From Phage NC-B, in the sequence record MK310183: a stretch of DNA of 64,000 bases. One strand, given 5' to 3'. Both the position numbers and the translations under genes were made by a program. A model generated the notes under the pieces. It did not search any database and was not told where the DNA came from. It was given only the letters and a program-made list of their open reading frames with translations. Below, piece after piece: positions 2,559-21,654 of the stretch (position 1 is its first letter; each line of letters starts with the position of its first letter).

Positions 2559-2562
2559 GATA

Positions 2563-2583
2563 AGCCCCTTCGGGGGCTTTTAG
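2563..2583 (+). terminator. Rho-independent terminator
   Basis: AGCCCC-TTCG-GGGGCT hairpin followed by TTTTA. Confidence 0.6.
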
Positions 2584-2647
2584 GAGTGAAACTGGTGAAT
2601 AAGTAATGAAACTACTATATCCAAAAGGAAAATGAAAGGAGAAGAAA

Positions 2648-2866
2648 ATGAAAATGATGAAACAGGTAACTTATGGTCTAGCTTGCTTAGGGACAGGTTT
2701 TGTGATTTCCACAGCAGTACCTGTAAATGCAGTAGGCTCTCATTCTATTATAGAAGCTCCTGTAGAGAAGCTTAGTTCTCAATGTAAACAAAGGACCATT
2801 CAAAATAATTTGGTTGTTATTTGCCCAGACGCTCAATCTTCAGCTCTGAGAAAAATTCTTCCTTAA
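2648..2866 (+). CDS. Small membrane/secreted protein, possible lysis-associated (adjacent to lysozyme)
   Basis: AAAGGAG RBS; 72 aa with one N-terminal hydrophobic segment (YGLACLGTGFVISTAVPV). Confidence 0.35.
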   Translation: MKMMKQVTYGLACLGTGFVISTAVPVNAVGSHSIIEAPVEKLSSQCKQRTIQNNLVVICPDAQSSALRKILP

Positions 2867-2899
2867 TTGACCTAAAATAACAACAAAAGGAGGTCAAAG

Positions 2900-3391
2900 A
2901 TGGACGCTATCGCATTGCCGCCTGTACAGATGAGCCTAAGTCCGGCTGGTATGGAGTTTATCATGAAGCATGAAGGCATGAGAACTAAAGCCTATAAAGA
3001 CTCCGCTGGAATCTGGACTATATGTGTAGGGGCTACGCGCGATATGAATGGGTATCCAGTAAGACAAGGATTAACGTATTCTATAGAGGATTGTCTAGCT
3101 CTGCTAGATAGAGACACACAAGACTCTGTTCGTGCTACTCAGAAAAACATAAGAGTTCCTATGCTAGCTCATGAATTTGATGCTGTCACTTCTTTCAACT
3201 TTAATGTTGGTGGTGGTGCTTTGTCAACTTCAAAACTTAGGAAAGTGATCAACGGAGATGTGAAGGGTGATGTTTACTCAGAGTTCTTACGTTGGGATAA
3301 GATAACTGTTAAAGGTGTAAAACAGCAGAGTCCGGGGCTTCACAATCGTAGGGTTGCAGAAGCAGACCTATACACCACAGGAAAATATTAA
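2900..3391 (+). CDS. Lysozyme (glycoside hydrolase family 24, T4 e / lambda R-like muramidase)
   Basis: AAAGGAGG RBS; motif HEGMRTKAYKDSAGIWTICVGAT matches the EG...AY.D..G..TIG.G catalytic region of GH24 lysozymes. Confidence 0.7.
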   Translation: MDAIALPPVQMSLSPAGMEFIMKHEGMRTKAYKDSAGIWTICVGATRDMNGYPVRQGLTYSIEDCLALLDRDTQDSVRATQKNIRVPMLAHEFDAVTSFNFNVGGGALSTSKLRKVINGDVKGDVYSEFLRWDKITVKGVKQQSPGLHNRRVAEADLYTTGKY

Positions 3392-3403
3392 TGGAGGTGC
3401 CTT

Positions 3404-4207
3404 TTGGCTATCGAAACAACTGCGGTAGTAACTACCGACTTAAACCCTCTGTACCCACGGGACAGGGATTATCTTTATGAAGGGGCTGCCCAGATACGAC
3501 TGGTCAAACAAGTATTAATTAACACCTTTCCTAACATCACAGAGCCAGTTCAACTTGACTCAGATTCTTTCAACATTCTAGCAAACAAGGTCTCCTTTAC
3601 TGGAGATTCTATGGATGTTGGAGGTTTGATGATCAAAAACTTAACTCCGGGAACAGGAGACAAAGACGCTGTAACCAAAGGTCAGATGGAAGCTTTCATG
3701 TTGAATTGGATGCAGAATAAACTATACCGTATTGGTGCTTACTACATCACTGAAGAAGATATCAACCCCGGAGATTCTAGCTCTCTTGGTTTTGGTTCTT
3801 GGGCTAAAGTAACTGGTGTTATTATGGGTACTGGTGTTGTTAACCCTGATGGATCTGTTCCTAATGCTCAGCGTGTTGAATTCCAAGCAGGTGGCACAGG
3901 AGGTCGAGTATTCAACACAATCCGTGCTGACAATATGCCTCTTACTACAATCAATGGTTCCAGTTTTCAAGTTAGTTCTTATTCTCACTCACATAATATC
4001 ACGATGGGTCGTGGAGATGCTAGCGGTCACAACAGCAGTCCTAATTGGTATAGTCCGGGTGGTGGTTATACTCAGGTAACTGATACTAACACTCACTCTC
4101 ACTCGATTACAGGTTCTGTTAGTTTTGGACGTGATGATGTATCGAGACAACCTATCAACACTTTGCCGCCTTTCAGAGCAGCGCATATCTGGAGACGTAT
4201 TAGCTAA
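3404..4207 (+). CDS. Putative tail fiber / receptor-binding protein with HxH motifs
   Basis: TTG start 6 nt after GGAGG RBS; Gly/Ser/Thr-rich; repeated HxH motifs (SHSHNITMG, THSHSITG) as in metal-binding fibre tips. Confidence 0.4.
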   Translation: MAIETTAVVTTDLNPLYPRDRDYLYEGAAQIRLVKQVLINTFPNITEPVQLDSDSFNILANKVSFTGDSMDVGGLMIKNLTPGTGDKDAVTKGQMEAFMLNWMQNKLYRIGAYYITEEDINPGDSSSLGFGSWAKVTGVIMGTGVVNPDGSVPNAQRVEFQAGGTGGRVFNTIRADNMPLTTINGSSFQVSSYSHSHNITMGRGDASGHNSSPNWYSPGGGYTQVTDTNTHSHSITGSVSFGRDDVSRQPINTLPPFRAAHIWRRIS

Positions 4208-4216
4208 GGAGGAACT

Positions 4217-7200
4217 ATGGCGCTTTATCCAATAAAATCTTTAGGGGCTGTAGGGGTTATTGCTGACCAAGCTCCGACTGATTTAGCACCTAATGCTTTC
4301 ACTAATGCTATCAATGCCCGCTTTGTAGAGCAAAGAGTTTTTAAGACGGGGGGCAATGCCCCTCTTTCTTATGTAGAAGAAGATAAAGAGATTACACCAC
4401 TTTCTTTTATATCAATGCCTTTTGACTACTATAGTGCAGGTAATAGCTTTCTGATTGTTGGTACAGACAAAAAGCTATACAAGCTAACAGATGAAAGTTT
4501 GACAGATATTAGCCGAAAGGTTGCTACTGTCACAAAAAGAGCTTCCGCTTCTATTAAGATATATCCGGTTGTTTCTCAGATTGTTCCTAAAGAAACTTCT
4601 ATTTCAATGAATTTCAATCAAACTAAAGCCTTGGAAGTTTCTATTCTTCCTGAAGATGCTAATAACACAGCTTTAGTTTGGGAGGTTAGTAATTCTTCTT
4701 ATGGTAAAGTAGAAGCTGACACCGAGAACCCTAAAACTGCAACTTTGACGTCTTATGAAAAAGAAGGGAATTTAGTAGTTACTGTATCAACAGCTGATAA
4801 ATCTATTAGTGCTCAGATTGCAGTAAACATCATAGATGGTGATTCTGGTATCTTCTTAAGTCAGGATACAATAACTGTCCGCAAAGGTGGTAACACAACG
4901 CTAACTGCTGTTACTGGAAAAACTCCTGTAACTTGGGTCTCTAGTAATGCTTCTGTTGTGTCTGTAACACCTAATGCTAATACACTGACAGCTACTTTGT
5001 CTGCTAATGGTGAGGGTACTGTAACAATAACTGCTGATAACGGAACTAAGAGTGCTTCTTGTCAAGTTACTGTTATACCTCAGATAGACAGTATCACTCT
5101 GAGTCAGACAAGCGTTCAAATGAGCAGGGGTACTCAGTATGTTTTAACTGCTACGGTTAATCCTTCAGATGCTCCCAATAAAAGCATAACTTGGACTTCC
5201 TCTAATCCTACCATTGCCACAGTTTCTGGAAATAGTACAGAAGCGGTAATAACAGGGTTACTAGCTGGGTTTACTGAAATCACAGCTGTTACTCAAGAGG
5301 GTGATAGATCAGCAACCTGTACAGTGAGAGTTGATTTAGCTGGGAGAATGATGCGAACTTCTGCAATGGCTTTATCAGAACCTGTTGTAGATTCTATACA
5401 AGAAGAAGAAACCAATAATACTCCTATCGAATCAGAAGAGGTTTTATATTTTGTTAATGAGCCATCTGGAGTTGATACCTCAGGAATGTATGAAGGTAAC
5501 AACTTCTATGATTACTCAAACGTCAACGATATGGAAGGTTTTGCACGAGCTGCACTCATGTCCAGCGATACTCCGTTGCAATCTTTATCACTAGATATCA
5601 TCGATGCCTCTCTTGATGTTGGGGAAGATATTGTAATTACAGCCAATGCTTTGCCTGAGGGAGAGTATTTCTATCAGTGGACAGTGGACAAAGCAGGATA
5701 TGTTTCAACCACATCTACTACCGGGAAATCTCTAAAACTGACAGCTATTCGTAAAGGTGAGATCAAAGTTACTTGTACTGCTAGTCAAATGACTCAGAAA
5801 GATTATGATGCTTTTGACGACTATCCTTGGTATCACACCATAATCTCTAACTGTGCAGTGGCTACCACTCACTATGAAACACCACAGGTCAAAGAGTTTG
5901 AATCTGAGTATTTCGTAGATCTTCCGGGATGGGGTGAGCAAACAGTCGTTGATAATGATGGCAACCCTTCTGTTAAGAAATTTAACTGGAAGTGTGAGCG
6001 TATTCGTGCATTCAACAACAGACTTTTTGCTCTGAATATGAGGGAATCTAATGCATCTGGTGTAACTACTCACTACCCTCTAAGACTTCGGTGGTCGAAT
6101 TTCGCTAACGAAAACAAAGCTCCATCTCTTTGGGATGATTATGCTTATGATCGTTTAACAACTTCAGACCTATCAGCAAACATCGTTGGTCAAACTGAGG
6201 CTTTGGAAAATGGGTACGCTGGGTATATAGATTTAGCAGATTCTAACGGAAGCTTGATTGATGTACTTCCTCTGAAAGATTACCTTTTTGTTTACACGGA
6301 GTTCGAAACCTACATTGGCTCTCCAACCAATAACACATATCAGCCCCTTATGTTTAAGAAGCTGTTTAATGACTCTGGCATACTTGCTCCTGAGTGTGCA
6401 GTTGAAGTCGAAGGTGGACACTTCGTAGTAACTCAAAATGATGTGATCTTACATAATGGTGCATCTAAAAAATCTATAGCATCTAACCGAGTCAAGAATC
6501 TTCTCATTAATGAGATCTGTCTAGTAAACCCTCTAGCTACTAGAGTTCACCTACACCAAGACAAGAAAGAGGTTTGGGTTTTATATGTAGGTCCGGGAGA
6601 GCCTAAAGAGAGTTTTGCTTGTAATAAAGCCGCTGTTTGGAATTATGAGTTTGACACTTGGTCTTTCCGTACAATACCATATGCTCAGTGTATTGGGTTA
6701 GTCGATCCACCAGTTCTTGAGAGAGGTCCAATCTGGGCAGATTTTCAAGAGATCACTTGGGATGATCCCTCTATTAACCAATTAGTCTGGAGAAAGGATG
6801 CTAATAACTTCCGTCAAAGGATTACAATAGTTGGCTCTTTCCTGAAGGGATTCTATCAAGTGGATGTTGGTGCTCTGGACTACATCTATGATAGAACCAA
6901 TGATAGGATTATAGAAAAACCTTTAGAAATGAGGCTAGAAAGAACTGGTATTGATTTTGATAATGTCACTAATGAGTGGAATCAAAAACATATTAATAGA
7001 TTTAGACCTCAAGTTACTGGTACAGGTACTTATACTTTTGAAGTCGGTGGAAGTCAATTCTCAAACGAGTATGGACACAATCACTCAACTAAAGAGTTTA
7101 GGGTAGGCTCAGATCGTCATGTATCCGTGAGACTGAACCATCCATACCTATTCTATAATGTTATAGATAATGATGTTAACAGTAATGCTTCTATGAATGG

Positions 7201-7237
7201 TTTAACCATAGAGTTTAGTGTTGGCGGTCGAAGATAA
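4217..7237 (+). CDS. Large virion structural protein with three Big_2 (bacterial Ig-like) domains
   Basis: AAGGAGG RBS; 1006 aa; three consecutive ~90-aa Ig-like repeats in residues ~100-380. Confidence 0.5.
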   Translation: MALYPIKSLGAVGVIADQAPTDLAPNAFTNAINARFVEQRVFKTGGNAPLSYVEEDKEITPLSFISMPFDYYSAGNSFLIVGTDKKLYKLTDESLTDISRKVATVTKRASASIKIYPVVSQIVPKETSISMNFNQTKALEVSILPEDANNTALVWEVSNSSYGKVEADTENPKTATLTSYEKEGNLVVTVSTADKSISAQIAVNIIDGDSGIFLSQDTITVRKGGNTTLTAVTGKTPVTWVSSNASVVSVTPNANTLTATLSANGEGTVTITADNGTKSASCQVTVIPQIDSITLSQTSVQMSRGTQYVLTATVNPSDAPNKSITWTSSNPTIATVSGNSTEAVITGLLAGFTEITAVTQEGDRSATCTVRVDLAGRMMRTSAMALSEPVVDSIQEEETNNTPIESEEVLYFVNEPSGVDTSGMYEGNNFYDYSNVNDMEGFARAALMSSDTPLQSLSLDIIDASLDVGEDIVITANALPEGEYFYQWTVDKAGYVSTTSTTGKSLKLTAIRKGEIKVTCTASQMTQKDYDAFDDYPWYHTIISNCAVATTHYETPQVKEFESEYFVDLPGWGEQTVVDNDGNPSVKKFNWKCERIRAFNNRLFALNMRESNASGVTTHYPLRLRWSNFANENKAPSLWDDYAYDRLTTSDLSANIVGQTEALENGYAGYIDLADSNGSLIDVLPLKDYLFVYTEFETYIGSPTNNTYQPLMFKKLFNDSGILAPECAVEVEGGHFVVTQNDVILHNGASKKSIASNRVKNLLINEICLVNPLATRVHLHQDKKEVWVLYVGPGEPKESFACNKAAVWNYEFDTWSFRTIPYAQCIGLVDPPVLERGPIWADFQEITWDDPSINQLVWRKDANNFRQRITIVGSFLKGFYQVDVGALDYIYDRTNDRIIEKPLEMRLERTGIDFDNVTNEWNQKHINRFRPQVTGTGTYTFEVGGSQFSNEYGHNHSTKEFRVGSDRHVSVRLNHPYLFYNVIDNDVNSNASMNGLTIEFSVGGRR

Positions 7238-7243
7238 CAAATA

Positions 7244-7268
7244 GGGGCTTCGGCCCCTTTTATTGTTT
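7244..7268 (+). terminator. Rho-independent terminator
   Basis: GGGGC-TTCG-GCCCC hairpin followed by TTTTTATTGTTTTT. Confidence 0.6.
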
Positions 7269-7284
7269 TTAATTGGAGGTACTT

Positions 7285-8253
7285 ATGGGTGCTGGAGGTT
7301 TTCGAAAGAATACTGGTAGAAACAACACCACACTTCCGTACAATGTTGGTTTTCTAAACAATGTGCAGGATACAGAAACTTACAACGTTGCCGTCTATGA
7401 TGAACTACAAAAAGTTAGTACAGCAACTAATCAGATGTTTCAAGCTATTGATGAAATACATGAAGAAATTGATGTTAGGATTAAAGCTCTTAATGCAATG
7501 AATCTTCAATTTGATGAACTTGAAAACAGAATTACTACAGAGATCGAAACAGCTATTGCTGATATTCAAACACAGATGGGCAATCTGTCCACTGAAGATA
7601 TTTGGGATAATTCAGTACAACCGCCAGTTAAGCTAGAAAGTTCTATGGCAGGGTTTAAAACTTCTATAGAAGGTAATGAGGTTAAGATACAGTCTGTTGA
7701 GGGAATCGTAAACCAGCAGGGAGAGGAAATTGGCTTAGTTCAAACAGAGATCTCCAACATTAACAGCAGTCTATCTTCTTATATGAAGCTATCTGACTAC
7801 GAAGCTACGTGGGGAATTAACTCAAACGTCAACGGCAGGTATGCTGGTGTCAAACTAACTAACAACGGCACGAATAGTCAGTTCCAAGTTACAGCTGATA
7901 AGTTTGTTGTAGGTGATGGTAACTCAGGTAATACACCTTTTGTGTTTGAAGGAGGTCGAGCTAAGATAGAGTTTGCTGATATTAAGAATGTCAATATCAC
8001 AACTGCTCAGATTGCTAATGCTCGTATCCAGTTTGCTCAGATAGATAACGTGTGGATTACTGATGGTCAGATTGCCAATCTTACAGCTAACAAGATCACT
8101 GCTGGCTCTATGAGTGGTTCAAACTGGAGACTTACTGTTGGCGGGGATTTTGTGATGGGTGGTACAGGTGGAGCACAGCTCTGGATGAATGGGAATAGAA
8201 TCGATTTCTATGACGGGAGTGGTGCACTGAGAATCAGGATAGGGAGTTGGTAA
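7285..8253 (+). CDS. Virion structural protein (coiled-coil N-terminus, beta-rich C-terminus; tail fiber-associated?)
   Basis: ATG at 7285 with GGAGGT RBS (ORF track starts at upstream TTG 7273). Confidence 0.45.
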   Translation: MGAGGFRKNTGRNNTTLPYNVGFLNNVQDTETYNVAVYDELQKVSTATNQMFQAIDEIHEEIDVRIKALNAMNLQFDELENRITTEIETAIADIQTQMGNLSTEDIWDNSVQPPVKLESSMAGFKTSIEGNEVKIQSVEGIVNQQGEEIGLVQTEISNINSSLSSYMKLSDYEATWGINSNVNGRYAGVKLTNNGTNSQFQVTADKFVVGDGNSGNTPFVFEGGRAKIEFADIKNVNITTAQIANARIQFAQIDNVWITDGQIANLTANKITAGSMSGSNWRLTVGGDFVMGGTGGAQLWMNGNRIDFYDGSGALRIRIGSW

Positions 8254-8254
8254 T

Positions 8255-9286
8255 ATGGCTTATGGAATATGGTGTCAACCTGTAGGACCGGGACCAGCTT
8301 CCCCGGCTCCTCTCTTTATTGATAGCGGAAGTACTTTTCCTCAAATAAAAAATTCAATAAGTGGGAGTTTTAACTTTAATGGGGCTGGAAGGTCTTTTCC
8401 TATTAGCGGGTGGGATGGGAGTGGTCAGATAGTGATTGTACCAACAGGCTCTCTTTGTTGGCAATGGGAGGTTCCTCCTAACTTAATTCCTGATGTATAT
8501 TGTGTCAACAATATTTATGTAGAGAATAACACATCGTTCAGGGTTACATTAAATCAAAATCCGGGAAGCAACCCTTTGTTTGACTGTGGTTTCAATGTAT
8601 ATCAAATCTACCCAAGAGCTGATAGGAACTATGGAATAACCTTCTCTAATACAGCTGATTATTTCTCTATCTCAGATGCTGGGATTGTGGGTCAATGCAT
8701 CTGGGCTTGGCAAGGAACTATAAACAACGCTCTACAGATACCTGATATTGGTGGTTTCTATATGCCTAATGCTGTAGTTTTTGCTAACTGGTCTGATGGT
8801 GGTGTTGGTTTATCTTATACATCAGGAGATAGGGTGATTCGAGTTTATCAAAACAGGTCTTATAACAATGGCAACACTAATGAAGGTGGTTCTGTGTTTG
8901 CTAGGGTTGCTGTATTTTGTAATGGTGCTGGGGTTCCTGAACACAACGGCGGTTTAAATATATATTCTCCCGGAACTACTCAGTGCGTATTCTCTACTTA
9001 TAGGTCTCCTTTTACAGTAGACACTTTCGTAGGCTCAGCAGGTGGAAATACTGGCTTAGCTTATCCTATGATTCCTCTGTCTTCTGGAGTTGGAGCTATC
9101 AGAGGAAGTGGGAGTGGTTGGTATTATCAACAAATGCGTTCTCATACCATGTCAGGGTCTTCAATAGGAACTGGATATGGTAGATATATGTTCCAATGGT
9201 CTAACAGTTATGACTTAGGTTCTAATGCTGCTGTTAATATCTCCATCCCTGTAATCAACGCTGCTAAGATTTTTGCAGGTTTATGA
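8255..9286 (+). CDS. Virion structural protein (Gly/Asn-rich, probable tail component)
   Basis: AGGGAG RBS; 343 aa; 1-nt gap from upstream stop suggests translational coupling. Confidence 0.4.
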   Translation: MAYGIWCQPVGPGPASPAPLFIDSGSTFPQIKNSISGSFNFNGAGRSFPISGWDGSGQIVIVPTGSLCWQWEVPPNLIPDVYCVNNIYVENNTSFRVTLNQNPGSNPLFDCGFNVYQIYPRADRNYGITFSNTADYFSISDAGIVGQCIWAWQGTINNALQIPDIGGFYMPNAVVFANWSDGGVGLSYTSGDRVIRVYQNRSYNNGNTNEGGSVFARVAVFCNGAGVPEHNGGLNIYSPGTTQCVFSTYRSPFTVDTFVGSAGGNTGLAYPMIPLSSGVGAIRGSGSGWYYQQMRSHTMSGSSIGTGYGRYMFQWSNSYDLGSNAAVNISIPVINAAKIFAGL

Positions 9287-9298
9287 TAAGGAGTTTTT

Positions 9299-10096
9299 AT
9301 GACAAAAATAATGGGAGTGTCAGAGCTTGACCCTTTGGTCCAACAAGCTTCTAAGAAATATGGCATTCCTGCTGCTCTTATACATGCAGTGATTCAGAGA
9401 GAGTCTAATGGAAGACCTTCTGTTGAATCTGGTACAGGACCAGTAGGTTTAATGCAAATCAGTAAGGGGTTGGCTAAAGATTATGGATATAAACTTGAAG
9501 ATAGGTTAGACCCTGCAAAGAATATTGACATGGGTGCTAGATATTTAAGAGATAACCTGAAAGCTTTTGATGGTGATGTGAGGAAGGCTTTGGTGGGGTA
9601 TTCAGAAGGAACTGGTGGTGCTAAGCAAATGTTTGCTGGTAAGAGAGGGTTTACACCTCAAGCTTTAGATTCAATGAATAATAAGCTGTTCCTACCATTC
9701 TTTGATAAGAATACAGCAGCGGCACAAGTGGCTAATCCTGTAGGTGCTTTGAAAGCAGTTCAGCCTGTGGACCAGTTTGATTCTAATACACTGACTAGAG
9801 AAGGTGCTGCAAACGCTCCTACTCAAGCAGAGATAGCTGCAAGCAAGGCTGGAGCTTTAGGTGGTCGTCCTGTAGAGTTTTACTCTGATGAACAATCTAC
9901 TGGGGAAAATCAAAAACCTCAACAGAACTTTGGAAATGCTGTATTGGCAGCTGCTTCTATGCTTGCAGGAAAACAGCCTAACTCTCAAACCGTACAGAGA
10001 GCACATGCCCCTACTCAAGCAGGTTCTCGATACAGTCCACAAACACAAGCCGTGCTGAGACGTTTGTCTAGCATAGGTACTGATATTTACAGATAA
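9299..10096 (+). CDS. Lytic transglycosylase (SLT domain), probable virion-associated peptidoglycan hydrolase
   Basis: AAGGAG RBS; motif IQRESNGRPSVESGTGPVGLMQIS matches SLT catalytic ES...G..GLMQ signature. Confidence 0.65.
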   Translation: MTKIMGVSELDPLVQQASKKYGIPAALIHAVIQRESNGRPSVESGTGPVGLMQISKGLAKDYGYKLEDRLDPAKNIDMGARYLRDNLKAFDGDVRKALVGYSEGTGGAKQMFAGKRGFTPQALDSMNNKLFLPFFDKNTAAAQVANPVGALKAVQPVDQFDSNTLTREGAANAPTQAEIAASKAGALGGRPVEFYSDEQSTGENQKPQQNFGNAVLAAASMLAGKQPNSQTVQRAHAPTQAGSRYSPQTQAVLRRLSSIGTDIYR

Positions 10097-10105
10097 GGAG
10101 GACGT

Positions 10106-11158
10106 ATGTCTCTTTTCGGTTCTGCTCCTAAATCTAAGACTACGGTAGCTCCGTCTTCTCAGGTTGATGCTCTTCTGAAACAGATTGTAGCAAATGCTCA
10201 GGCTATGAATCAAAACGATCAAGGTTTTATTGGTCGTAACGTAGCGGGTTTTAATGAAAACCAAACAGCAGCTCTTTCTAATTTAGCAAATTCTAACACA
10301 CTCAACCAACTCAGTCAGATGTACACCCCTAGAACTCAACAAGGGTTGGACCAGATGAATGAGTTGGCTCAGAAATATCAAAACCTAGTTAATAAAGGTG
10401 GTATCACTGCTCAGGATGTTAATAATTTTAGCTCTGGATTGAATAGCTCTGCTTTAGCTAAGTCTACAGGTAAAGCTGCTGCTAATGTATCTCTTGGTAA
10501 TGGTTCTGATTCAGGTTCTCTTAGACGTGCTGCTGCTCAAGGTGCTGCTCTCTCTTCAGCGAATACAAACCTTTCTCGTTCTATTCAAGGTAAAAACATG
10601 GGTGTTAGCAATCTTATGAATAACAACTCCTATCAGCAAGGTTTGCTCAATGCTCAATCGGGTCTAGCAAATCAGAATCTGAATCTAGGAGCTGCTGGGG
10701 TACAAGCTGGTCAACAGGCAATACAGAATCAGCTCACTGCTGGGAATCTTCAACAACAGCAAGATCAACTCCAAGCTAACAACAATTGGGAGAATGCTAT
10801 TGGCAATCAGCAGTATGGTTGGAATCGGCTTAACAACCAGCTTAATGTATTAAACTCAGTAAGCCCAATGGCTGGGTACACCATTACTAACAAAGGTGCT
10901 GCCCCTAATGTTTCACAACAAATCCTTGGTGCTGGGGTTACTGGTCTTGGTATTGCTGGACGTCTAGGTGCTTTTACCCCTAATCAGCAAACTACTAATG
11001 CTTGGAACTCATACAATGCTTCTGGAGGTCAAGCTGGGATGGCTGGTCCTATGATTGGTGGCTCAAACCTGTCTCAACAGAATGGTCAGAGCAACTGGTT
11101 ATCTACCGCAGGAAGTAATATCTTAGGTGGTGTTCTAGGAGCCTTTGGAGCAAATTAA
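10106..11158 (+). CDS. Q/N/G-rich internal virion protein (paralog 1)
   Basis: AAGGAGG RBS; N-terminus MSLFGS..SKTT parallels the next gene. Confidence 0.45.
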   Translation: MSLFGSAPKSKTTVAPSSQVDALLKQIVANAQAMNQNDQGFIGRNVAGFNENQTAALSNLANSNTLNQLSQMYTPRTQQGLDQMNELAQKYQNLVNKGGITAQDVNNFSSGLNSSALAKSTGKAAANVSLGNGSDSGSLRRAAAQGAALSSANTNLSRSIQGKNMGVSNLMNNNSYQQGLLNAQSGLANQNLNLGAAGVQAGQQAIQNQLTAGNLQQQQDQLQANNNWENAIGNQQYGWNRLNNQLNVLNSVSPMAGYTITNKGAAPNVSQQILGAGVTGLGIAGRLGAFTPNQQTTNAWNSYNASGGQAGMAGPMIGGSNLSQQNGQSNWLSTAGSNILGGVLGAFGAN

Positions 11159-11167
11159 GGAGGAGCT

Positions 11168-12136
11168 ATGGCTTTATTTGGTGGTGGGAGTAGCAAGACT
11201 ACTTCTAAAATGACAAGACCTGACTACATTCAATCCTATATTGACCAGTTGGTCAATCAGGTTAATAACACTAGTTCAGGTGATTATGTGTATCGAGAAA
11301 ATGTTGGACTTAATCAAAACCAACAAGAAGCTCTGAACAATCTATCACAATCTGGTGCATTAGGTGCACTTTCTTCTCAATACATGGATGCTGCTCAATC
11401 TGGCTTAGGTTATCTAGATAACGCATACTCTGGATATAACAACCTATCTAACTCTGGTCAAATCACTGGGGAACAGATTGGTGCTCTTGCAGGCCAGCTC
11501 TATGACGATGAGGCTGTGCAAGCAGCTATTGCAGCGAATAATGAACAAACCCAACAGAGTTTGGCTAGGAATGCACTTCCTCAAATCTCTCAGCAGTTTG
11601 CTGGTCAGCAAGGTTCTGGTGCACGTATGGCTAAATCTTTTGCTCAAGGTGATGCTCTGAACCAGATGCAGAACACAGCAACCAATATTACTAATAGTGC
11701 TTATGACTCCGCTCTAACTCAAGCACAGAACATTCTTTCTGGTAATAGACAAACACAAGCATCTGCTTTGGGTGGTTTATCTAACATTGGCTCCAATCTT
11801 GCTAATCTAGGAAACCAAGCTGGTCAGTTATCACAACAGCAAATGATGAATCAGTGGAATGCAGGACTGCAACAGCAGCAACAACAGCAGTCTGATTTGA
11901 ACAATGCTTATGAGAATGCTCAGAATGCCGCTAATTGGGGTTGGCAGGATATTAACAATCAACTAGGTGCTGCCGGGGTTCTTAATGGAGCTTTAGGGAC
12001 AACCACAACTACTAAAACATCTGGTGGTAGTGGAGGCTTCCTAGGTGGTGCTGCTAGCGGTGCTGCTGCTGGCTCAGCTTTTGGCCCTTGGGGTGCTTTA
12101 GCTGGCGGTGTTATCGGTGGCTTAGCTAGCTCTTAA
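11168..12136 (+). CDS. Q/N/G-rich internal virion protein (paralog 2)
   Basis: AGGAG RBS; N-terminus MALFGGGSSKTT and Q/N-rich body paralogous to 10106-11158. Confidence 0.45.
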   Translation: MALFGGGSSKTTSKMTRPDYIQSYIDQLVNQVNNTSSGDYVYRENVGLNQNQQEALNNLSQSGALGALSSQYMDAAQSGLGYLDNAYSGYNNLSNSGQITGEQIGALAGQLYDDEAVQAAIAANNEQTQQSLARNALPQISQQFAGQQGSGARMAKSFAQGDALNQMQNTATNITNSAYDSALTQAQNILSGNRQTQASALGGLSNIGSNLANLGNQAGQLSQQQMMNQWNAGLQQQQQQQSDLNNAYENAQNAANWGWQDINNQLGAAGVLNGALGTTTTTKTSGGSGGFLGGAASGAAAGSAFGPWGALAGGVIGGLASS

Positions 12137-12150
12137 TTAGGAGAATAATT

Positions 12151-13818
12151 ATGCAACAAACTTCTTATGCGTATCTTCGCAGTCAAGACCCAAGAAATCA
12201 GATTTATGGTGTTAAACAAGGGGCCGCTTCGGCCTCTCCATACATGGCAAGACCTGCTTACCCAGCTGCTGATGTTTCAATGTATAGTCAGAGACCTCCT
12301 GCCTCTCCTGTAGGTTTATCCTCTCTTGTTGCTACTGCTCAAGAAGACCAAGAAGCTATGTTAAATCCGGGATTTAGGCAGCGCCTTATGGAAGCAGAGA
12401 ATCAAGGGACTCCTACAAGCCTTCAGGGTATTGATATTGGCGAACCAGCTCCTGCTATGAATAACCCAGATCTATCCTCTGATGAGGGTCTACAAGCTGC
12501 TGGGTTGATGCCTAGTGACCCACTTCCTGTTACTCCTCCTCGTAAACCTCTGGAAGAAACAGATAAAGAGTTCTCTCCAGTTCAGGTGGAACAGGCTCAG
12601 AATGTTATTAACACTTTAGCTAATAGTAATCCAGCTCCTGAAGGTATGGCTGGTGCAACTCGTGCTAAAGACCAAGAACGTATTAATAATGATATTATGG
12701 AAGTAGCTAAAGCTAAAGATCCAGCGCAAGCTTGGAATGAGCTTCAGAAGCAACCGTTCTACCAGAAGTCTAGTTTCTATACTGGCTTAATGGGTGTTGG
12801 TCTTTCTATCATGTCAGGTAAATCTCCTATTGAAGCTTTCCAGATTGGTTCTGGCTTAGCTGCTCAGGATGAAACTAAACAACAACTAGAAGCCAATCGC
12901 GATGCTCTGTTAGAACAAGGCTACTCTCAAGATTCAGTTGCTGCTGCAATTGCTTCGGGAGATCCTTCTCTTCTCAAGATGCGTCAGATGAGTCCTCAGG
13001 AGAAAATGGCTCTTGCTGCTCAGGATGAAGAACGTGCTAATCGTGAGTGGGATAGACGTCAACAGATTCAGGATCAATCAGTTCGTGAACGTGCTGCTGA
13101 GACTCGTCGTGCTGCTGAAGAACGTGCTGATGCACAATTTGCTAAACAGAAAGAGCTTATTGAATATCGTGATAAGGTTAAAGCAGACCGCGCTGAACAA
13201 GCTGCTCAGAGCTTCAACTTCAGTACGAAAGAGCTTCGTAACGTTCAGAATACTGCTGAAGGTTCTGTTGCTAAGCAGTGGGCAGAAAAAGCTGCTCTGT
13301 TTAAACAGTCTCATAAGGACTTGGATTTGGCAGATCAGGCTATTAAAGATAAAGACTACCAATCCGCTCGTACCGCTTACATGCAGGCTATTATGAACTC
13401 CGCAAGGGCAGAAATTGGTGCTAACCGTTCTCTCCAAGCTGATGACTTGGCCCACTTTGCAGAAGACCCATCAATCTTTGTTAAGGTTGGTAACACTTGG
13501 TCCCTTAAAGCAGGCTATCGTCCTTCTGATGCTGCTCTGTCATACGCTCGTAAGCAGGCAACTGTTGGTGCTTCTTCGGCTGACAAAGGTGTTCTGGAGT
13601 CTAAGAAATCAACTATTGATGCTTATGTGGGTTCTGGCATGAATAAGAAACGTGCAACAGCTTTGGTTAACCGTGGTATACCTTCTGGCGGTTTCTATGA
13701 CCCATACAAGACTTTTGATGCAGAAGCTGAAGAATCTGTTGGTGGAGATGCAACCAATCCTCGCTTAACAGGTGCTCTTTCTTCTTCAGCGGCAGATACG
13801 AGTTGGATGTTCCAGTAA
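12151..13818 (+). CDS. Internal virion protein (Pro/Ala-rich N-terminus, charged coiled-coil centre)
   Basis: AGGAGA RBS; 555 aa. Confidence 0.4.
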   Translation: MQQTSYAYLRSQDPRNQIYGVKQGAASASPYMARPAYPAADVSMYSQRPPASPVGLSSLVATAQEDQEAMLNPGFRQRLMEAENQGTPTSLQGIDIGEPAPAMNNPDLSSDEGLQAAGLMPSDPLPVTPPRKPLEETDKEFSPVQVEQAQNVINTLANSNPAPEGMAGATRAKDQERINNDIMEVAKAKDPAQAWNELQKQPFYQKSSFYTGLMGVGLSIMSGKSPIEAFQIGSGLAAQDETKQQLEANRDALLEQGYSQDSVAAAIASGDPSLLKMRQMSPQEKMALAAQDEERANREWDRRQQIQDQSVRERAAETRRAAEERADAQFAKQKELIEYRDKVKADRAEQAAQSFNFSTKELRNVQNTAEGSVAKQWAEKAALFKQSHKDLDLADQAIKDKDYQSARTAYMQAIMNSARAEIGANRSLQADDLAHFAEDPSIFVKVGNTWSLKAGYRPSDAALSYARKQATVGASSADKGVLESKKSTIDAYVGSGMNKKRATALVNRGIPSGGFYDPYKTFDAEAEESVGGDATNPRLTGALSSSAADTSWMFQ

Positions 13819-13843
13819 TCTAAGACCTAAGTCCTATCTCTTA

Positions 13844-13852
13844 TAATGTATA
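13844..13852 (+). promoter_or_regulatory. Candidate phage-sigma promoter element TAATGTATA
   Basis: Motif 36 nt upstream of ATG 13889; same motif recurs upstream of several minus-strand genes. Confidence 0.4.
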
Positions 13853-13888
13853 TAGGAGGTAGGACATTTTTATTTATAAGGAGACGTT

Positions 13889-16800
13889 ATGGCTAATTTA
13901 AAATCGTGGGAAGAAGCTTCCAAAGCTCCTGCGTATCTGAACGCCTCTCCAGAGCAACAGGCTCAAATGAGAGAACAATACAAGGCAGCAGGGGGCACTA
14001 TTCCTGAGACTCAACCACAAGAGCAACCACAACAAGAAGAACGAGGTGCTATTGGGGAGTTTGCTCAAGGTGTGTCTAACGCTCTTCAATCAGGTGGTGC
14101 TAACATTGCAGCTAGTGCTGCTAAAGGTTTAGGTGGGCTGGTAGAGATTGGTGAAAACTTAACTGGTTCAGAAACAAGCTATGGTAAGCGCATTCAAGAG
14201 AACTCTAAGCAATTGCTGGAAGAACGCTTATCCAAGATAGAAGACGGTTTTGGTAAAACAGCTGGTCAGTATGCTGGTGTTGCTGCTGATATTGGTTTGA
14301 CAGTTGCAAACCCTGCTGTTGCTGCTGCTGTTATCGCAGCTCGTGAAACAGGTCGTGCTTATGCTGATCAAACTCCTAAAGAAGATGAAGATAAGTCAGT
14401 CTTAGATGCTGCTCTTGTTGGTGGTGCTAACTACGCTGCTCAGAAGATACTTCCGGGCATGACTGGTACAGCTTCTACTACTCTTGGTCGTGTAGGACAA
14501 AGCGTAGCCTCTAACGCAGTTGCTGGTGCTAAGGGTGGTGCTATTGTTGGTGCTGCTGAAGCTCAGAACAAATATGGGGATGACACTACTCTAGCTAACG
14601 TATTAGAAGGGGCTATTGAAGAGGGTGCACTCGGTGCTGCTTATGGTGGGGCGATTGGTGGGGTTCATGGGTTAATAAGCCGTCCTAGCCCTCAAGTGTT
14701 TGATCGTACTCCTGAGCATGTTAAGACTGACATTGCTGCTGAAGATGAGGCTATTCGTAAAGCTGCTAACGCTGATGAACTTCGTGAAGCCTATGCTAAA
14801 GCTGAGAACGCTAATGCTGCCTCTGCTTTAAACCTTCTGGATGAAAATGGTTTCCGAATCACAGATGCAGTTGCTATGGACTCTCCTGCTGTTCAGCGTA
14901 TTTTAAATACAGACCAAAGCCGCGCTGAGAAGGCTGCTACGGTTCAGAAAGATAGCTCTAATGTTCCCGGTCTTAATCCTCTCGCTTCTCCTAAGAAGAC
15001 TCAAGGTAAAGCTTTTGCTGACAATGAGTACAACCAGAAACAAGCTGTGGCAATGAAAGATGCAATGGCTGACTACACTAAAGATAACACCAAAGCCCTT
15101 ACTGATGTTCTAGACAATCTAGACCGAGAGTTAGTAGCTCTGAGAGCAAGTGGTGATTTTACTGGTAGTACTATTGACATTAAAAACCGTACTCAAGCTG
15201 ATCGTGATTTTATTGATGCTTATAAAACTTTCTACAGCGAAGCTAATCGTTTCAAAGCTCGTGATGGTGAAGATCTAAACAACTTCATTGATAAAGCTAC
15301 TCAGTTGCAGAAGCTATCTGAGAATGTTTCTCCAGAGATGAAGAAGGCCATTGGTGGATTAAAGAAACTGAAAGGTATGCCTGAAGGTTTTAACCCTATT
15401 CAAGATGCTTTCACTCTGAATAATACAGCTAAGTTCATGAGTAACCAAGACCGTGGTTGGACCTCTCTGACTGATGATGGTTTTCGTGAAGCTCCGGCTC
15501 CTGTGCTAGTTAAGAACCCTCTCGGTGCAGCCAAGTATGTGCTTAATCGCTTTACTTCTGACCGTGCTCGTGCTCAACGTGAGAAGCAACAGTCAGCTAA
15601 TAGTGAAGCTATCCGCTCTTTGGCTAGGGCTGATTTAGAAGTACAACGAGCTAGGACTCAGGCTGAAGAAGCAAGAGCAAAAATGGAAGAAGAACCAACC
15701 ACAGAAGACATCAAATTCCGTACTCAAAATGATGCACCTTCCGAACCGGTTCGTGAGGAGCCTTCTGCTACTACTGTGACGGAAGAAATTCCTTCCTCTC
15801 CAGCTCCAACTGAAACACCTCTTACTGCGAGGGATTTAGTTGCTCAAAGACGTGCTATCCAACAAGCAGAGCTTAGACGTCAAGAAGCTGAAGCTGCTCA
15901 GGCTCAAGAAAGTGCTACACCAGAACCTGAACCACAGCAAGAAGCTCTTACAGCTAGAGAATTAGTAGCTCAGCGTAGGGCTGTAGCAGAGGCTAAGAAA
16001 CGTCAAGAGGCAGAGGAAGCAGAACGTGCTAAAGAAGCTCCTGAGGAAGCCGTAGAAGAGCCTAAAGAGAAACCTGAGCCATTACCTGCTCGTGCTCCTA
16101 AAGCTCCTGAGAAGGCTCCTGAGCCTGTTAAACCGTCCCTTGGTGTAGAACGTCTAGCTTCTATGTCAACTGCTGCTCGTCAAGCAACAAAAGACCGTGC
16201 TGATCGATTTGCTCGTTCTTTGTATTCGGCTGCTGCTAAAGCTAAAGCCACTGCGGAAAACTTCCTTTCTTACAAGGGAGATCCTAAAGAGCTTATGCGT
16301 CGTATCCGTCAGGAAGACCAAGCAAACAACACACAGCGTCATGAAGAGATGGCTAGAAACCAACTAGCTTCCCAGCAAGGCATTGCTTCTGCTAAATCTC
16401 AACATGTTCGTGCTTCTTTTGCTGATTGGGTGAAAGAACGTGGGTTGCCTTCTGATATTGCTACTAAGGCTTTACGGGCTGAAGAGAAAGGTTTAGGTGG
16501 GAACGTCACAAGTCTAGATTCACTGAAGCGAAGAGCTGAGCGTTTATATCAGAAACAAAGAGATGATGAGTTTGACCGTCTCTATCGAGAGGCTCTGGAA
16601 GAGAATAAAGCTTTTGATAAGAGAGATGCTCCTAAACTGGTAGACCAGAAGAAAGAGCTTCAGGATGAAATTGGTGCGTTGCTTGATGCTGAACCGTTAC
16701 GTCCTGCTCAGAAAGATGCTATGCGTAGGATTATGGAAGACTTCGTGGAGAGTAAGTTTAAATCTTCAGAGAAAGCTGGAAGGGTTGAGGCTTTGGAAGT

Positions 16801-18334
16801 TGGTCAGATGAAGGATGTGTGGGATGGGTTTATTAATACCTATAACCGAGAAGTTAACATGTTCAACAAGGCTAACAAGAATTCTCAATACGAAGCAGCA
16901 GCTAAACACTTGCAAGCACGTCAAGAACGTCTTGAGACGCTCCGTAACAGAGCTAAGGCTCGCAGTGATGCTAAGGCAGCCATGGAGGCTGAGAAGCAGT
17001 CCTTGGAGGCTATAGCGGCTCAGAAATCAGAGATAGAGAAGATGTTCAAAGAATTGCCTGAAAGTGTCAGAGAGGCTCAGGAAGGGCGTACTTTGAAACA
17101 GCTTGCTGCTCACCATGATAAGAACTCTCCAGTACCACCAGAGCGTTTCCGTAGTATCATTGAACGTATTCACAACGCTGAGAGTGATTACCTCGATCGA
17201 AAACGCCGTTTGACCGAAGCAGAGGAAGATGCTCGTGAAGCTAAGTGGAATAGGATGTATGAACAGGCTGAGGAAATGAACCGTAAGTTTGATATCGATG
17301 CTAGAGTGAAGAGAGATAAAGCTCTAAAGGAAGCTCAAGAACGAGAGAATGACTTAATGGCAGTTCAACGTCAGCGTGATGACATTCATAAGCGTTTAGT
17401 CAATACTCTGGAAGAGAAGGGAGTTTCTAGGGAAGATGCTGAAGCGTATGCTGGGTCTTACATGGATAATCGGTATGCTTTGTTAGAGAAACCAATGACT
17501 CCAGTGGAACATCAGAATGCTCGTGCTCGTATCGAATCTGACGTAGAGAAGTTTGTTAAGAAATACGAAACAGCTACTCCAATCGAAAGAGAGATTGCTA
17601 AGGCAACTGGTGATGCAGATGGGAAGGCTTCTGATCTGGATGCAGAAACAGCAAAAGCTATTGAAGATGCTCGTAAAGTGGATTCTGACTTTAAGAAACT
17701 TTTAGATGAAGAGAAGGAAATGGAGAAGATTCGTTCGGCTCTACCTGAAGATGAAAGATCTCAGGCGAACTCTGATATTCTGGAAAGTATCAAGAAACAG
17801 GAAGATGATTTTGCTAGCAAAGCAGAGAAAGCTTTTATTGAAGGGAAGGACTTGCAGGAGTTAGCGAGTGTTGCAGAAGTTCTAGATAGGGTTCATGGTG
17901 CAGACAAGGCTGGTAACAACCGTCGATTTGTACGTGCTCTACAGACTGCTGCCGAGAACAAGAAACGTTATGGGGATAATCCAGTGGCTTGGTTTAGTGC
18001 TGATGATTATTCTGCTATTGCGAAACTTGGTGCTGCTTCGGCAGGTGGTAACAAATCTCGAGCACTTGAGAAGATCTTTGGTTCTACAGCAGAACAAGCT
18101 AAAGGGAAACTTTTAGGGCGGGATGATGTAGCTAAGATTAGGCGTGTGATTGAAGCGAATCCTAATGTTAAGATTCCTTCTTACAAGACAACTACTAGAC
18201 AAGAGTACATGCAGTTCTTGGAGAAGTATAATGACGAGGGAGAGTTGAAAGTCAAACGTGGTTCTCTGTCTGACAAGTTGGAGAGAGGTAAGCGTCAAGC
18301 CAAACTCCGTGTTAGAGTTCGAGCTAAGGAGTAA
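13889..18334 (+). CDS. Large Ala/Glu/Lys-rich virion protein (internal core/ejection or tape-measure-like)
   Basis: AAGGAG RBS; 1481 aa, helical/charged with internal tandem repeat; last gene of the + strand block. Confidence 0.45.
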   Translation: MANLKSWEEASKAPAYLNASPEQQAQMREQYKAAGGTIPETQPQEQPQQEERGAIGEFAQGVSNALQSGGANIAASAAKGLGGLVEIGENLTGSETSYGKRIQENSKQLLEERLSKIEDGFGKTAGQYAGVAADIGLTVANPAVAAAVIAARETGRAYADQTPKEDEDKSVLDAALVGGANYAAQKILPGMTGTASTTLGRVGQSVASNAVAGAKGGAIVGAAEAQNKYGDDTTLANVLEGAIEEGALGAAYGGAIGGVHGLISRPSPQVFDRTPEHVKTDIAAEDEAIRKAANADELREAYAKAENANAASALNLLDENGFRITDAVAMDSPAVQRILNTDQSRAEKAATVQKDSSNVPGLNPLASPKKTQGKAFADNEYNQKQAVAMKDAMADYTKDNTKALTDVLDNLDRELVALRASGDFTGSTIDIKNRTQADRDFIDAYKTFYSEANRFKARDGEDLNNFIDKATQLQKLSENVSPEMKKAIGGLKKLKGMPEGFNPIQDAFTLNNTAKFMSNQDRGWTSLTDDGFREAPAPVLVKNPLGAAKYVLNRFTSDRARAQREKQQSANSEAIRSLARADLEVQRARTQAEEARAKMEEEPTTEDIKFRTQNDAPSEPVREEPSATTVTEEIPSSPAPTETPLTARDLVAQRRAIQQAELRRQEAEAAQAQESATPEPEPQQEALTARELVAQRRAVAEAKKRQEAEEAERAKEAPEEAVEEPKEKPEPLPARAPKAPEKAPEPVKPSLGVERLASMSTAARQATKDRADRFARSLYSAAAKAKATAENFLSYKGDPKELMRRIRQEDQANNTQRHEEMARNQLASQQGIASAKSQHVRASFADWVKERGLPSDIATKALRAEEKGLGGNVTSLDSLKRRAERLYQKQRDDEFDRLYREALEENKAFDKRDAPKLVDQKKELQDEIGALLDAEPLRPAQKDAMRRIMEDFVESKFKSSEKAGRVEALEVGQMKDVWDGFINTYNREVNMFNKANKNSQYEAAAKHLQARQERLETLRNRAKARSDAKAAMEAEKQSLEAIAAQKSEIEKMFKELPESVREAQEGRTLKQLAAHHDKNSPVPPERFRSIIERIHNAESDYLDRKRRLTEAEEDAREAKWNRMYEQAEEMNRKFDIDARVKRDKALKEAQERENDLMAVQRQRDDIHKRLVNTLEEKGVSREDAEAYAGSYMDNRYALLEKPMTPVEHQNARARIESDVEKFVKKYETATPIEREIAKATGDADGKASDLDAETAKAIEDARKVDSDFKKLLDEEKEMEKIRSALPEDERSQANSDILESIKKQEDDFASKAEKAFIEGKDLQELASVAEVLDRVHGADKAGNNRRFVRALQTAAENKKRYGDNPVAWFSADDYSAIAKLGAASAGGNKSRALEKIFGSTAEQAKGKLLGRDDVAKIRRVIEANPNVKIPSYKTTTRQEYMQFLEKYNDEGELKVKRGSLSDKLERGKRQAKLRVRVRAKE

Positions 18335-18341
18335 ACAAGAA

Positions 18342-18380
18342 AAGCCCCCAACCTGTAAAAAGGAAGGGGGCTTCTTTATT
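18342..18380. terminator. Hairpin terminator between convergent transcription units
   Basis: AAGCCCCC...GGGGGCTT 8-bp stem followed by CTTTATTT; lies between + gene ending 18334 and - gene ending 18440. Confidence 0.5.
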
Positions 18381-18439
18381 TCTAGATGTTAGAATCCATC
18401 AAATTCATCATACATCCCAATTTTCTTCTTCAAAGTCAA

Positions 18440-18706
18440 TCATAAAACCTCCCAATCATCTGCAAATAGATCACCTTGAGATGGAACCCATCCGGGCTGT
18501 ACAATACCTTGAGCATTCTTTAAAACCAGATGAGGGGCAATATAGAACTGACCTACAATATCAGCTTTTTCGTAAAGAGAACCCGGTAGAGCTTCTTCTA
18601 CTTCATAACCACCTGCTTTAAAGACAAACTGGTTTGCACCATTCCAACCAGAGCGAGTGACCTTTTTCCCTTCTTTTACTTTAATAAGCGCTGAACTAAA
18701 ATCCAT
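18440..18706 (-). CDS. DUF2829-family protein (Tad2-like candidate anti-Thoeris sponge)
   Basis: AGGAGA RBS; 88 aa; pattern F..AL...KEGKKV.R.GWNG ... GW.PSQ.DL.A.DWE.L matches DUF2829 as recalled. Confidence 0.5.
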   Translation of the reverse strand: MDFSSALIKVKEGKKVTRSGWNGANQFVFKAGGYEVEEALPGSLYEKADIVGQFYIAPHLVLKNAQGIVQPGWVPSQGDLFADDWEVL

Positions 18707-18714
18707 TTGTTCTC

Positions 18715-19014
18715 CTAGATTAAATCATAATACTTAATAATATCGGAGAGCTTAAACTCTCGAATGTCATTCTTGTCGTTGTCCCAAGCGGTCATTATCC
18801 AACAAGGTTTGCCCCCATTATGATAACGGGAAGAAGCAACTGAGGTTCGTAAAGGAATAACGGAGCGGTCTGCAATTTCACCTCTCCAATTACGATAGCT
18901 AAAACGAAGAGTTTGTGTCGTAGATACTTGATCATTTGTGCTTTCCTTGTTCATGGATTCAAAGACTTCCTTTTCTTCAGGAGTCTCTAGATTTTTTAAA
19001 TTCACGTCTTGCAT
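18715..19014 (-). CDS. Hypothetical protein
   Basis: ATG with AAAGAGGA RBS; 99 aa. Confidence 0.45.
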   Translation of the reverse strand: MQDVNLKNLETPEEKEVFESMNKESTNDQVSTTQTLRFSYRNWRGEIADRSVIPLRTSVASSRYHNGGKPCWIMTAWDNDKNDIREFKLSDIIKYYDLI

Positions 19015-19381
19015 CGTTTTCCTCTTTAGTTTTTATCTTATGGCAAGGCTCTTTGCATAAGACTTGAAAACCATCTTTCTCAACTAAAGCCCTCTCGATG
19101 ATTTCATCCCAAGTAGCTTCATGGTCCACTGGAACAATAGGCTTTATATGGTCTACTGCTACGTCTTTAAGAGGAGAATCATTACCACACATGGCGCACT
19201 TGTAATGCATTGCCAGTTTGCCAGTTTTAGGGTTGATTTTACGTTCTGTCTGAGCCTCTTTGAGAGAATCAAACATAGGTTTCCATTTCCTAGTCAGAGA
19301 ACGAATCCCTGACTTAATGAAGGAGTTATAACGTGCTTCAGTCCACTGACCAGAGCATCTTGTCTTCTCAGCTTTCGCCAT
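18977..19381 (-). CDS. HNH endonuclease
   Basis: Cys pairs flanking VDHIKP...H...H motif typical of HNH nucleases; 134 aa. Confidence 0.5.
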   Translation of the reverse strand: MAKAEKTRCSGQWTEARYNSFIKSGIRSLTRKWKPMFDSLKEAQTERKINPKTGKLAMHYKCAMCGNDSPLKDVAVDHIKPIVPVDHEATWDEIIERALVEKDGFQVLCKEPCHKIKTKEENDARREFKKSRDS

Positions 19382-21630: not shown

Positions 21631-21654
21631 AAGTCGTCCTTAACTTACTTTACA

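Follow-up and report, generated by a model that had tools for sequence, protein, structure and literature searches.

A Tad2-family gene in a mobile cassette of a phiEco32-like coliphage, predicted to encode a sponge for an ADP-ribose-derived immune signal

The DNA analyzed here (the window) was a stretch of 64,000 nucleotides from Phage NC-B (sequence record MK310183). The source phage was a phiEco32-like coliphage (Gordonclarkvirinae). A minus-strand block of genes ran from about 63 kb down to 18.4 kb and converged on a plus-strand structural block at 327..18334. We focused on an 88-aa ORF at 18440..18706 (-). Direct translation gave an ATG start and the protein MDFSSALIKVKEGKKVTRSGWNGANQFVFKAGGYEVEEALPGSLYEKADIVGQFYIAPHLVLKNAQGIVQPGWVPSQGDLFADDWEVL, in which both motifs quoted by an earlier note on this DNA were found. 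The gene was the 3'-most of the minus-strand block, as the note had said, and a strong bidirectional terminator lay beyond it. The note had also placed an HNH nuclease beside the gene. This did not hold in that form, because the direct neighbor was a WYL-domain gene and the HNH gene was the second gene upstream. The features of the locus were as follows.

18440..18706, minus strand: Tad2-like (PF11195) CDS, 88 aa, single domain, acidic, pI about 4.9
18448..18710, minus strand: Tad2 cassette, 263 bp, present here and absent from phage SU7 (pairwise alignment)
18712..18716, minus strand: Shine-Dalgarno AGGAG, 5 nt before the Tad2-like ATG, read from the sequence
18715..19014, minus strand: WYL-domain gene, stand-alone, 99 aa, directly upstream of the Tad2-like gene
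18977..19381, minus strand: HNH endonuclease gene, 134 aa (phrog_3106, E 5e-37), second gene upstream
18408..18443, minus strand: mini-ORF of 11 codons, MIDFEEENWDV and a stop, with an ATG that overlaps the Tad2-like stop (ATGA)
18333..18381, both strands: bidirectional intrinsic terminator, GC core 18344-18371, RNA fold dG -28.8 kcal/mol, z = -5.1

Because the AGGAG of the Tad2-like gene shared bases with the TAG stop codon that ends the WYL gene, translation of the Tad2-like gene could plausibly be coupled to that of the WYL gene. The terminator was common to the minus-strand operon and to the converging plus-strand gene for a 1481-aa protein, and the same terminator was annotated on both strands in the relatives SU7 and 4E8. 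The 1481-aa gene (13889..18334, +) was the last of the structural block. Its product was E/A/K/R-rich and contained repeats, and it was named 'hypothetical protein' or 'putative liver stage antigen' in relatives. It was strongly conserved in Bas87 and SU7, and its last 1 kb was only 85% identical in Bas88.

The WYL-domain gene matched Pfam PF13280 (25.0 bits against a cutoff of 21.8), the PADLOC WYL model (5e-7) and phrog_3715, and no HTH or WCX domain was found in its product. The gene was core in the subfamily (SU7, 4E8, PAS59, ShigP1 and Bas86-88) and had few relatives elsewhere (6 matches). Fold matches were weak (E 0.01-0.05, from a poor AlphaFold2 model with pLDDT 59) and pointed to the ssDNA-sensing WYL domains of PafBC, BrxR, CapW and DriD. 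The protein may serve as a decoy for whatever signal de-represses defense operons of the host, and the gene might be a second, unrecognized counter-defense factor. In the case of the 134-aa HNH gene, homologs were labeled 'terminase small subunit' in EK010, E20-1, PAS59, 4E8 and SU7 (MZ342906) and HNH in RefSeq. The terminase label was probably a mistake copied from record to record. A second variable slot lay between a 63-aa gene and the exonuclease gene. It was empty in the window phage. It held a DNA N6-adenine methyltransferase in 4E8 (3297..3827) and a 161/171-aa protein with an HNH/AP2-like motif in PAS59 (3788..4273).

The sequence was scanned for signals that could set the time of expression. 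From the sigma-factor gene to the Tad2-like gene, the genes were tightly packed or overlapping, and no convincing internal terminator was found among them. In phiEco32, transcription of the early genes begins at the right end and proceeds leftward, and the sigma factor gp36 recognizes a single element, tAATGTAtA. Exact gp36 elements (TAATGTATA) were found at 13844 (+), 23227 (-), 23298 (+) and 29577 (-). All four were intergenic, and one of them sat 37 nt upstream of the 1481-aa gene. With one mismatch allowed, 23 elements were found where 19.5 were expected, which was the level of chance, and only the four exact ones were intergenic. One of these, at 21649-21657 (-), lay just upstream of the phage sigma-factor gene and may point to autoregulation of the sigma factor. 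Directly upstream of the Tad2-like gene, the scans for sigma-70 and gp36 promoters gave no convincing promoter. The early promoters were about 45 kb away, on the upstream side of the gene, so its timing can only be inferred; we propose middle-phase expression by read-through. A single tRNA-Arg(TCT) gene at 53062..53137 (-) was also detected in the early/middle region (ARAGORN; Rfam 71.9 bits).

Comparison with related phages showed that the Tad2-like gene was accessory. The 3-kb region around it was 96.9% identical to Bas87, 95.3% to Bas86 and 96.2% to SU7. A copy at 69% identity or more was counted in 8 of 98 related records (Bas86, Bas87, Bas88, TH43, E20-1, two records of EK010, and ShigP1), and SU7 and 4E8 had nothing at that position. 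The orthologs or alleles in Bas87 (Bas87_0021), Bas88 (Bas88_0021), Bas86, EK010, E20-1 and TH43 were 84-95.5% identical and occupied the same slot. The cassette consisted of 4 nt of leader and the coding sequence from codon 1 through the first base of codon 87. It was bounded by direct GGAG(R) repeats that were Shine-Dalgarno-like (AGGAGA at 18711-18716 and GGGAGG at 18448-18453). The gene's final two codons and its stop belonged to the sequence that follows the WYL gene directly in SU7. The sequence of the mini-ORF was likewise found there directly after the WYL gene. The mini-ORF, which is probably not a gene, marks the cassette junction.

The slot flanked by the WYL gene and the bidirectional terminator was variable. 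It held the Tad2-like gene in the window phage, Bas86-88, EK010, E20-1 and TH43. In ShigP1 (2501..3183) the Tad2-like gene was followed by an HNH gene, in PAS59 (2408..2911) the slot was occupied by an HNH_3 homing endonuclease, and in SU7 (3884..4063) it contained no gene and about 130 nt of unrelated non-coding sequence. A slot that is variable and holds HNH homing endonucleases in PAS59 and ShigP1, together with a gene that is missing from most relatives, would also be expected of a decaying or non-functional passenger ORF that was recombined along near homing-endonuclease genes. However, dN/dS against the Bas87 and Bas88 alleles was 0.11-0.14 (about 0.12) at dS up to 0.54. In addition, the frame was intact in seven phages, the ribosome-binding site was intact and the pocket residues described below were invariant. 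The passenger ORF is thus an extremely improbable explanation, effectively refuted by the selection signature. The cassette was 86.1% identical to that of Bas87 although the flanks were 96-99.5% identical, and it was 95.1% identical to that of Bas88 although the flanks were 85-89% identical. This is a functional gene that was exchanged by recombination independently of the backbone and is under purifying selection.

Two alleles were distinguished in the Gordonclarkvirinae across codons 16-69. The type of the window phage, Bas88 and TH43 had L40, L44, D49, V51, Q53, Y55 and V61. The second type, that of Bas87, had R40, D44, G49, T51, R53, T55 and D61 and was nearer to the clade consensus. The EK010 and E20-1 proteins were 87.5% identical to the window protein, as was the Bas87 type. 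The exchange of R40/D44 for L40/L44 looks like an i,i+4 salt bridge swapped for a hydrophobic pair near alpha2, and positions 49, 51, 53 and 55 lay on one face of a strand. The differences may concern a second pocket or the dimer interface.

Homologs were also found outside the Gordonclarkvirinae. The unrelated phages IME_EC2 (gp24; Murrayvirus) and TR2 (gp87; Schitoviridae) carried homologs with 60-72% identity, which were also among the last genes of an early/DNA-metabolism operon. A homolog in sortsyn belonged to the same group of Murrayvirus and Schitoviridae relatives. Salmonella phage vB_SalP_TR2 had two annotated DUF2829 genes in one operon (1520..1903 and 2495..2767), and its 127-aa DUF2829 copy was below Pfam significance here. 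When 5,426 complete E. coli genomes were searched with the gene by distant blastn, no close DNA homolog was found. In the contig scan of bacterial genomes, only three loci were found, in Enterobacteriaceae bacterium B14 and two Xenorhabdus, and the Tatumella homolog known from assays was not among them. The small number of bacterial loci indicated that the subfamily travels mainly in virulent phages. It also meant that there was no prophage context around the homologs.

The earlier note had named the DUF2829 family for this protein, and a profile search confirmed it. PF11195 (Tad2-like, formerly DUF2829) matched with 83.2 bits against a cutoff of 25 (E=1.9e-23), over residues 1-88 of the protein and positions 1-73 of the 73 in the profile. 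The same profile was carried by 56 of 56 homologs from a word-indexed search. In a phmmer search of PDB sequences, only Tad2 proteins were matched, namely SptTad2 (1.7e-11), ModTad2 (3.5e-10), SPO1 Tad2 (1.6e-9) and HgmTad2/AcrIIA7 (5.4e-9), and identity to these four solved members was 35-38%. The protein also matched PHROGs 1048 and 872, both without a functional label. Scans with PADLOC and NCBIfam gave no model for it; the silence of PADLOC is uninformative because its scope is defense rather than anti-defense. The family was very large, since an exhaustive phmmer search at E <= 1e-3 gave 2,774 cluster representatives.

The fold was consistent with the sequence matches. An AlphaFold2 monomer model built from 40 homologs had a mean pLDDT of 94.6. 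It showed a helix at 3-11, strands at 16-18, 27-31, 34-36, 54-56, 59-63, 69-71 and 85-87, and helices at 44-47 and 77-80. This is the Tad2 arrangement of an N-terminal alpha1, an antiparallel beta-sheet and short alpha2 and alpha3 in loops. The likeness to Tad2 that the earlier note had proposed was also seen in the structure search, where all 24 significant Foldseek matches in the PDB were Tad2 (TM 0.66-0.84) and the next match had E=0.6. Residues F3, A6 and L7 of alpha1, as well as K11 and G13, were kept between this protein and the solved members, which lends indirect support to a homotetramer. The gene belongs to the Tad2 family and is an ordinary member of it.

We then compared the ligand pocket with those of the solved proteins. 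SPO1 Tad2 holds 1''-3' gcADPR via W25, N26, W73 and D79 and, by way of water molecules, via S76, D67 and H71; its T78, I63 and T65 contact the adenine. In HgmTad2 the gcADPR pocket is formed by W21, N22, G23, W87, S90, T92 and D93, and binding is lost in the W21A/N22A and S90A/T92A/D93A mutants. The HgmTad2 sequence used in our alignment was identical to that of PDB 8kbi. The residues of the ribose/diphosphate core, W21, N22, G23, W73, S76 and D79, were identical to those of the four solved Tad2 proteins. They were also invariant across 40 relatives. In the case of the adenine side, the contacts of SPO1 Tad2 (T78/I63/T65) and of HgmTad2 (T92/M76/A78/V84) were replaced here by G78/L62/N64/Q70. 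Over the whole set of base-side and water positions, the protein had L62/N64/Q66/Q70/P71/G78, where SPO1 Tad2 has I63/T65/D67/H71/-/T78 and HgmTad2 has M76/A78/D80/V84/N85/T92. This lining was unlike that of all four solved members. G78 replaced the Thr of SPO1 Tad2, HgmTad2 and SptTad2 and the Ser of ModTad2, and none of the four had Gly at that position. These differences argue against identical ligand recognition and not against family membership.

The base-side positions L62, N64, Q66, Q70, P71 and G78 were nearly invariant within the protein's own clade. Since the first homolog search relied on shared 5-residue words and could have created this invariance as an artifact, the 149 nearest representatives from a second, word-free search were checked. 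The residue at the position of G78 was Gly in 84 of them, Ala in 24, Thr in 20 and Ser in 18. Gly was thus the most common residue, and the protein is an ordinary member of a large Gly-type subfamily (LKNAQ...QPGW-PS-GD), for which we found no structure or published assay. Most of the nearest representatives (112 of 149) were longer than 110 aa. In these the fusion partner of the Tad2-like domain was either crAss001_48 (PF21825) or an uncharacterized domain at the N terminus (KKPV...GDWI..G.FYPCKPDIF), and neither partner gave a clue to the ligand.

It is conceivable, though rather doubtful, that the Gly-type subfamily is specialized for a TIR product with which Tad2 has so far not been linked. 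If so, the molecule could be canonical cADPR or one of the undefined signals of the E. coli systems TIR-I to TIR-IX, and the protein could be used as bait for it, as ModTad2 was for His-ADPR. A broader alternative is that the protein is a sponge for a so far undefined signal, for example that of an uncharacterized E. coli TIR system, or is inactive against the systems now known. We consider this fairly unlikely. It would account for N64, Q66, Q70 and G78, which were conserved in the clade and unlike any solved member, and it would agree with the many E. coli TIR systems whose signals are undefined. There is also a precedent for inactivity, because 19 of 84 sponge homologs of three families (Acb2, Tad1 and Tad2 together) inhibited none of seven systems. 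However, the ribose/phosphate core was the same as in the gcADPR binders, and most homologs in earlier tests inhibited type I Thoeris.

The known activities of the family were used to judge the ligand. In the founding study, four of five diverse Tad2 homologs inhibited type I Thoeris. A later screen (Hadary et al. 2025) covered 84 sponge homologs of Acb2, Tad1 and Tad2, of which 18 were Tad2. The Tad2 members in that screen inhibited type I, II or IV Thoeris, Pycsar or CBASS, and each was highly specific. ModTad2 binds His-ADPR, 2'cADPR and cUMP and not 3'cADPR, and cUMP is bound in a second pocket. In HgmTad2 and SptTad2 the second pocket takes cGG and cGAMP. Since the specificities of the homologs are so diverse, family membership is a much better guide to the mechanism, sequestration, than to the ligand. 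This diversity and the divergent base-side lining mean that Thoeris is the most likely target and not a demonstrated one.

We weighed whether the Tad2 fold might instead serve here as a sponge for a non-Thoeris ligand, namely cCMP or cUMP of Pycsar or the cyclic dinucleotides (CDNs) of CBASS, held in a second, intra-dimer pocket. A second site is possible because ModTad2, which is likewise short (about 88 aa), binds cUMP in such a pocket. The cGG and cGAMP binding of HgmTad2 and SptTad2 points the same way, and the sponge screen included Pycsar and CBASS systems from Escherichia. In addition, the two alleles described above differed mainly at residues 29-61, which correspond to the second-pocket region of other Tad2 proteins. 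However, the CDN pocket depends on a beta2-beta5 insertion of 35-41 residues and, in HgmTad2, on R31, S47, F70 and N85. The insertion here was only about 25-27 residues, and SPO1 Tad2, with 24, binds no CDN. R31 was replaced by A31 and N85 by P71, and the segment with S47 and F70 was missing. The strictly invariant residues of the clade were those of the ADPR pocket and not those of the insertion. HgmTad2-like CDN binding was rejected because the insertion was too short and the pocket residues were absent, and we regard a cyclic mono- or dinucleotide as the sole ligand as quite unlikely.

A different activity, that of an anti-CRISPR, was considered in the same way. AcrIIA7 binds tracrRNA through five basic residues in the groove of a tetramer and blocks Cas9 loading. 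The family and the fold are shared with it, the protein matched the sequences of PDB 8kbi (5e-9) and 9kzr (6e-8), and AntiDefenseFinder treats Tad2 and AcrIIA7 as one combined family. In pdAcrIIA7 the groove residues are K58, K66, K71, K93 and R101 (K11, K19, K24, K46 and R54 in meAcrIIA7). Only the equivalent of K58, K11, was retained here; two of the other positions were S19 and A24, and the remaining two fell in the absent insertion. The protein was also acidic, with 8 K+R against 11 D+E, and the Acr activity of HgmTad2 itself is disputed. The CRISPR systems of E. coli are of types I-E and I-F, and type II-A is not known from it. AcrIIA7-like RNA binding was rejected, with four of the five basic residues gone, and an anti-CRISPR role is extremely improbable. 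Taken from the sequence, both the CDN and the tracrRNA activities are unlikely for this protein.

The preferred reading is that the protein is a sponge that traps an ADPR-derived TIR signal, and we regard it as probable. Thoeris would be its most likely target, as judged from the family and the pocket core. The earlier note had put forward an anti-Thoeris sponge as a candidate only; this is the appropriate level for the claim, and the analysis supports it there. The solved Tad2 proteins are homotetramers in which two V-shaped dimers pair and the pockets lie where protomers meet. The 9.7-kDa protein would assemble into such a homotetramer like its solved relatives. Two pockets, each between protomers that do not form a dimer, would be lined by the GWNG loop (W21, N22, G23) and by W73-x-x-S76-x-x-D79. 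In these pockets the protein is predicted to capture a second messenger that is derived from ADP-ribose and produced by a TIR-domain sensor of the host. The likeliest candidates are 3'cADPR and/or 2'cADPR, as in type I, V or VI Thoeris. With the signal captured, the effector would never be activated, and the infected cell would not abort. The gene is an optional cassette that ends the sigma-factor / dNMP-kinase / exonuclease / HNH / WYL operon. Its transcription, probably in the middle phase, would precede synthesis of the capsid and tail proteins, which are frequent triggers of TIR systems. In E. coli, capsid and tail proteins are among the triggers of several TIR systems, and many TIR systems have undefined signals. 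Type VI Thoeris, which uses 2'cADPR, was cloned from two E. coli strains. Therefore, targets exist in the natural host.

The GenBank records of the Gordonclarkvirinae copies gave 'hypothetical protein', RefSeq labeled IME_EC2 gp24 and TR2 gp87 'DUF2829 domain-containing protein', and UniRef named the IME_EC2 protein 'Thoeris anti-defense 2-li[ke]'. The paper describing Bas86-88 made no mention of Tad2, Thoeris or CBASS. The Tad2 family is known, and any current domain scan would flag the gene. What is new is only this member and its setting, and the gene adds nothing conceptually new on Tad2. The points of interest are the Gly-type pocket lining without structural precedent, the phage pairs with and without the gene, and the conserved stand-alone WYL gene. 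If the preferred reading is true, a subset of phiEco32-like coliphages, including BASEL phages Bas86-88, carries a portable counter-measure against TIR/Thoeris. Pathogenic E. coli strains are frequent isolation hosts of this phage group, which has been proposed for use in therapy. Whether a phage has the cassette would then be an inexpensive genomic indicator of its host range among strains that carry TIR systems. Near-identical natural pairs with and without the cassette are available (the window phage or Bas87 against SU7, 4E8 or PAS59), and they would suit direct tests of Thoeris evasion in E. coli with native phages.

Finally, the protein was compared with the closest known systems. SPO1 Tad2 (gp34.65; PDB 8SME/8SMF/8SMG, 8WJE) is the founding member, a sponge for 1''-3'/1''-2' gcADPR that acts against type I Thoeris. 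The two proteins shared the Pfam family, the length class (89 and 88 aa), the short beta2-beta5 insertion and the fold (TM about 0.7-0.8). W25/N26/W73/S76/D79 of SPO1 Tad2 corresponded to W21/N22/W73/S76/D79 here, and both proteins are found in virulent phages. However, identity was only about 38%, T78, which makes the adenine hydrogen bond, was replaced by G78, and I63, T65, D67 and H71 were replaced by L62, N64, Q66 and Q70. Like HgmTad2 and SptTad2, this protein had one extra residue (P71-G72) ahead of the second Trp, and the host here is Gram-negative. In the case of ModTad2, the length was the same (88 aa), it was among the best fold matches (E 1.6e-7, TM 0.76-0.84), and the GWNG motif and the W..S..D segment were conserved. 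In contrast, identity was 36%, and its pocket lining was T/D/A/T/S against N/Q/Q/P/G here. HgmTad2, which is AcrIIA7 (PDB 8KBI-8KBM, 8WJC), and SptTad2 (8WJD) are dual sponges for gcADPR and cyclic dinucleotides. SptTad2 was the best sequence match (E 1.7e-11), and HgmTad2 gave the best structure match (8kbj, E 1e-7). Both shared with this protein the core of the ADPR pocket and the GW spacing before the second Trp. They differed in their 35-41-residue insertion with R31, S47, F70 and N85, whereas the insertion here was shorter and these residues were not conserved. The basic RNA-binding groove of AcrIIA7 was likewise not conserved.
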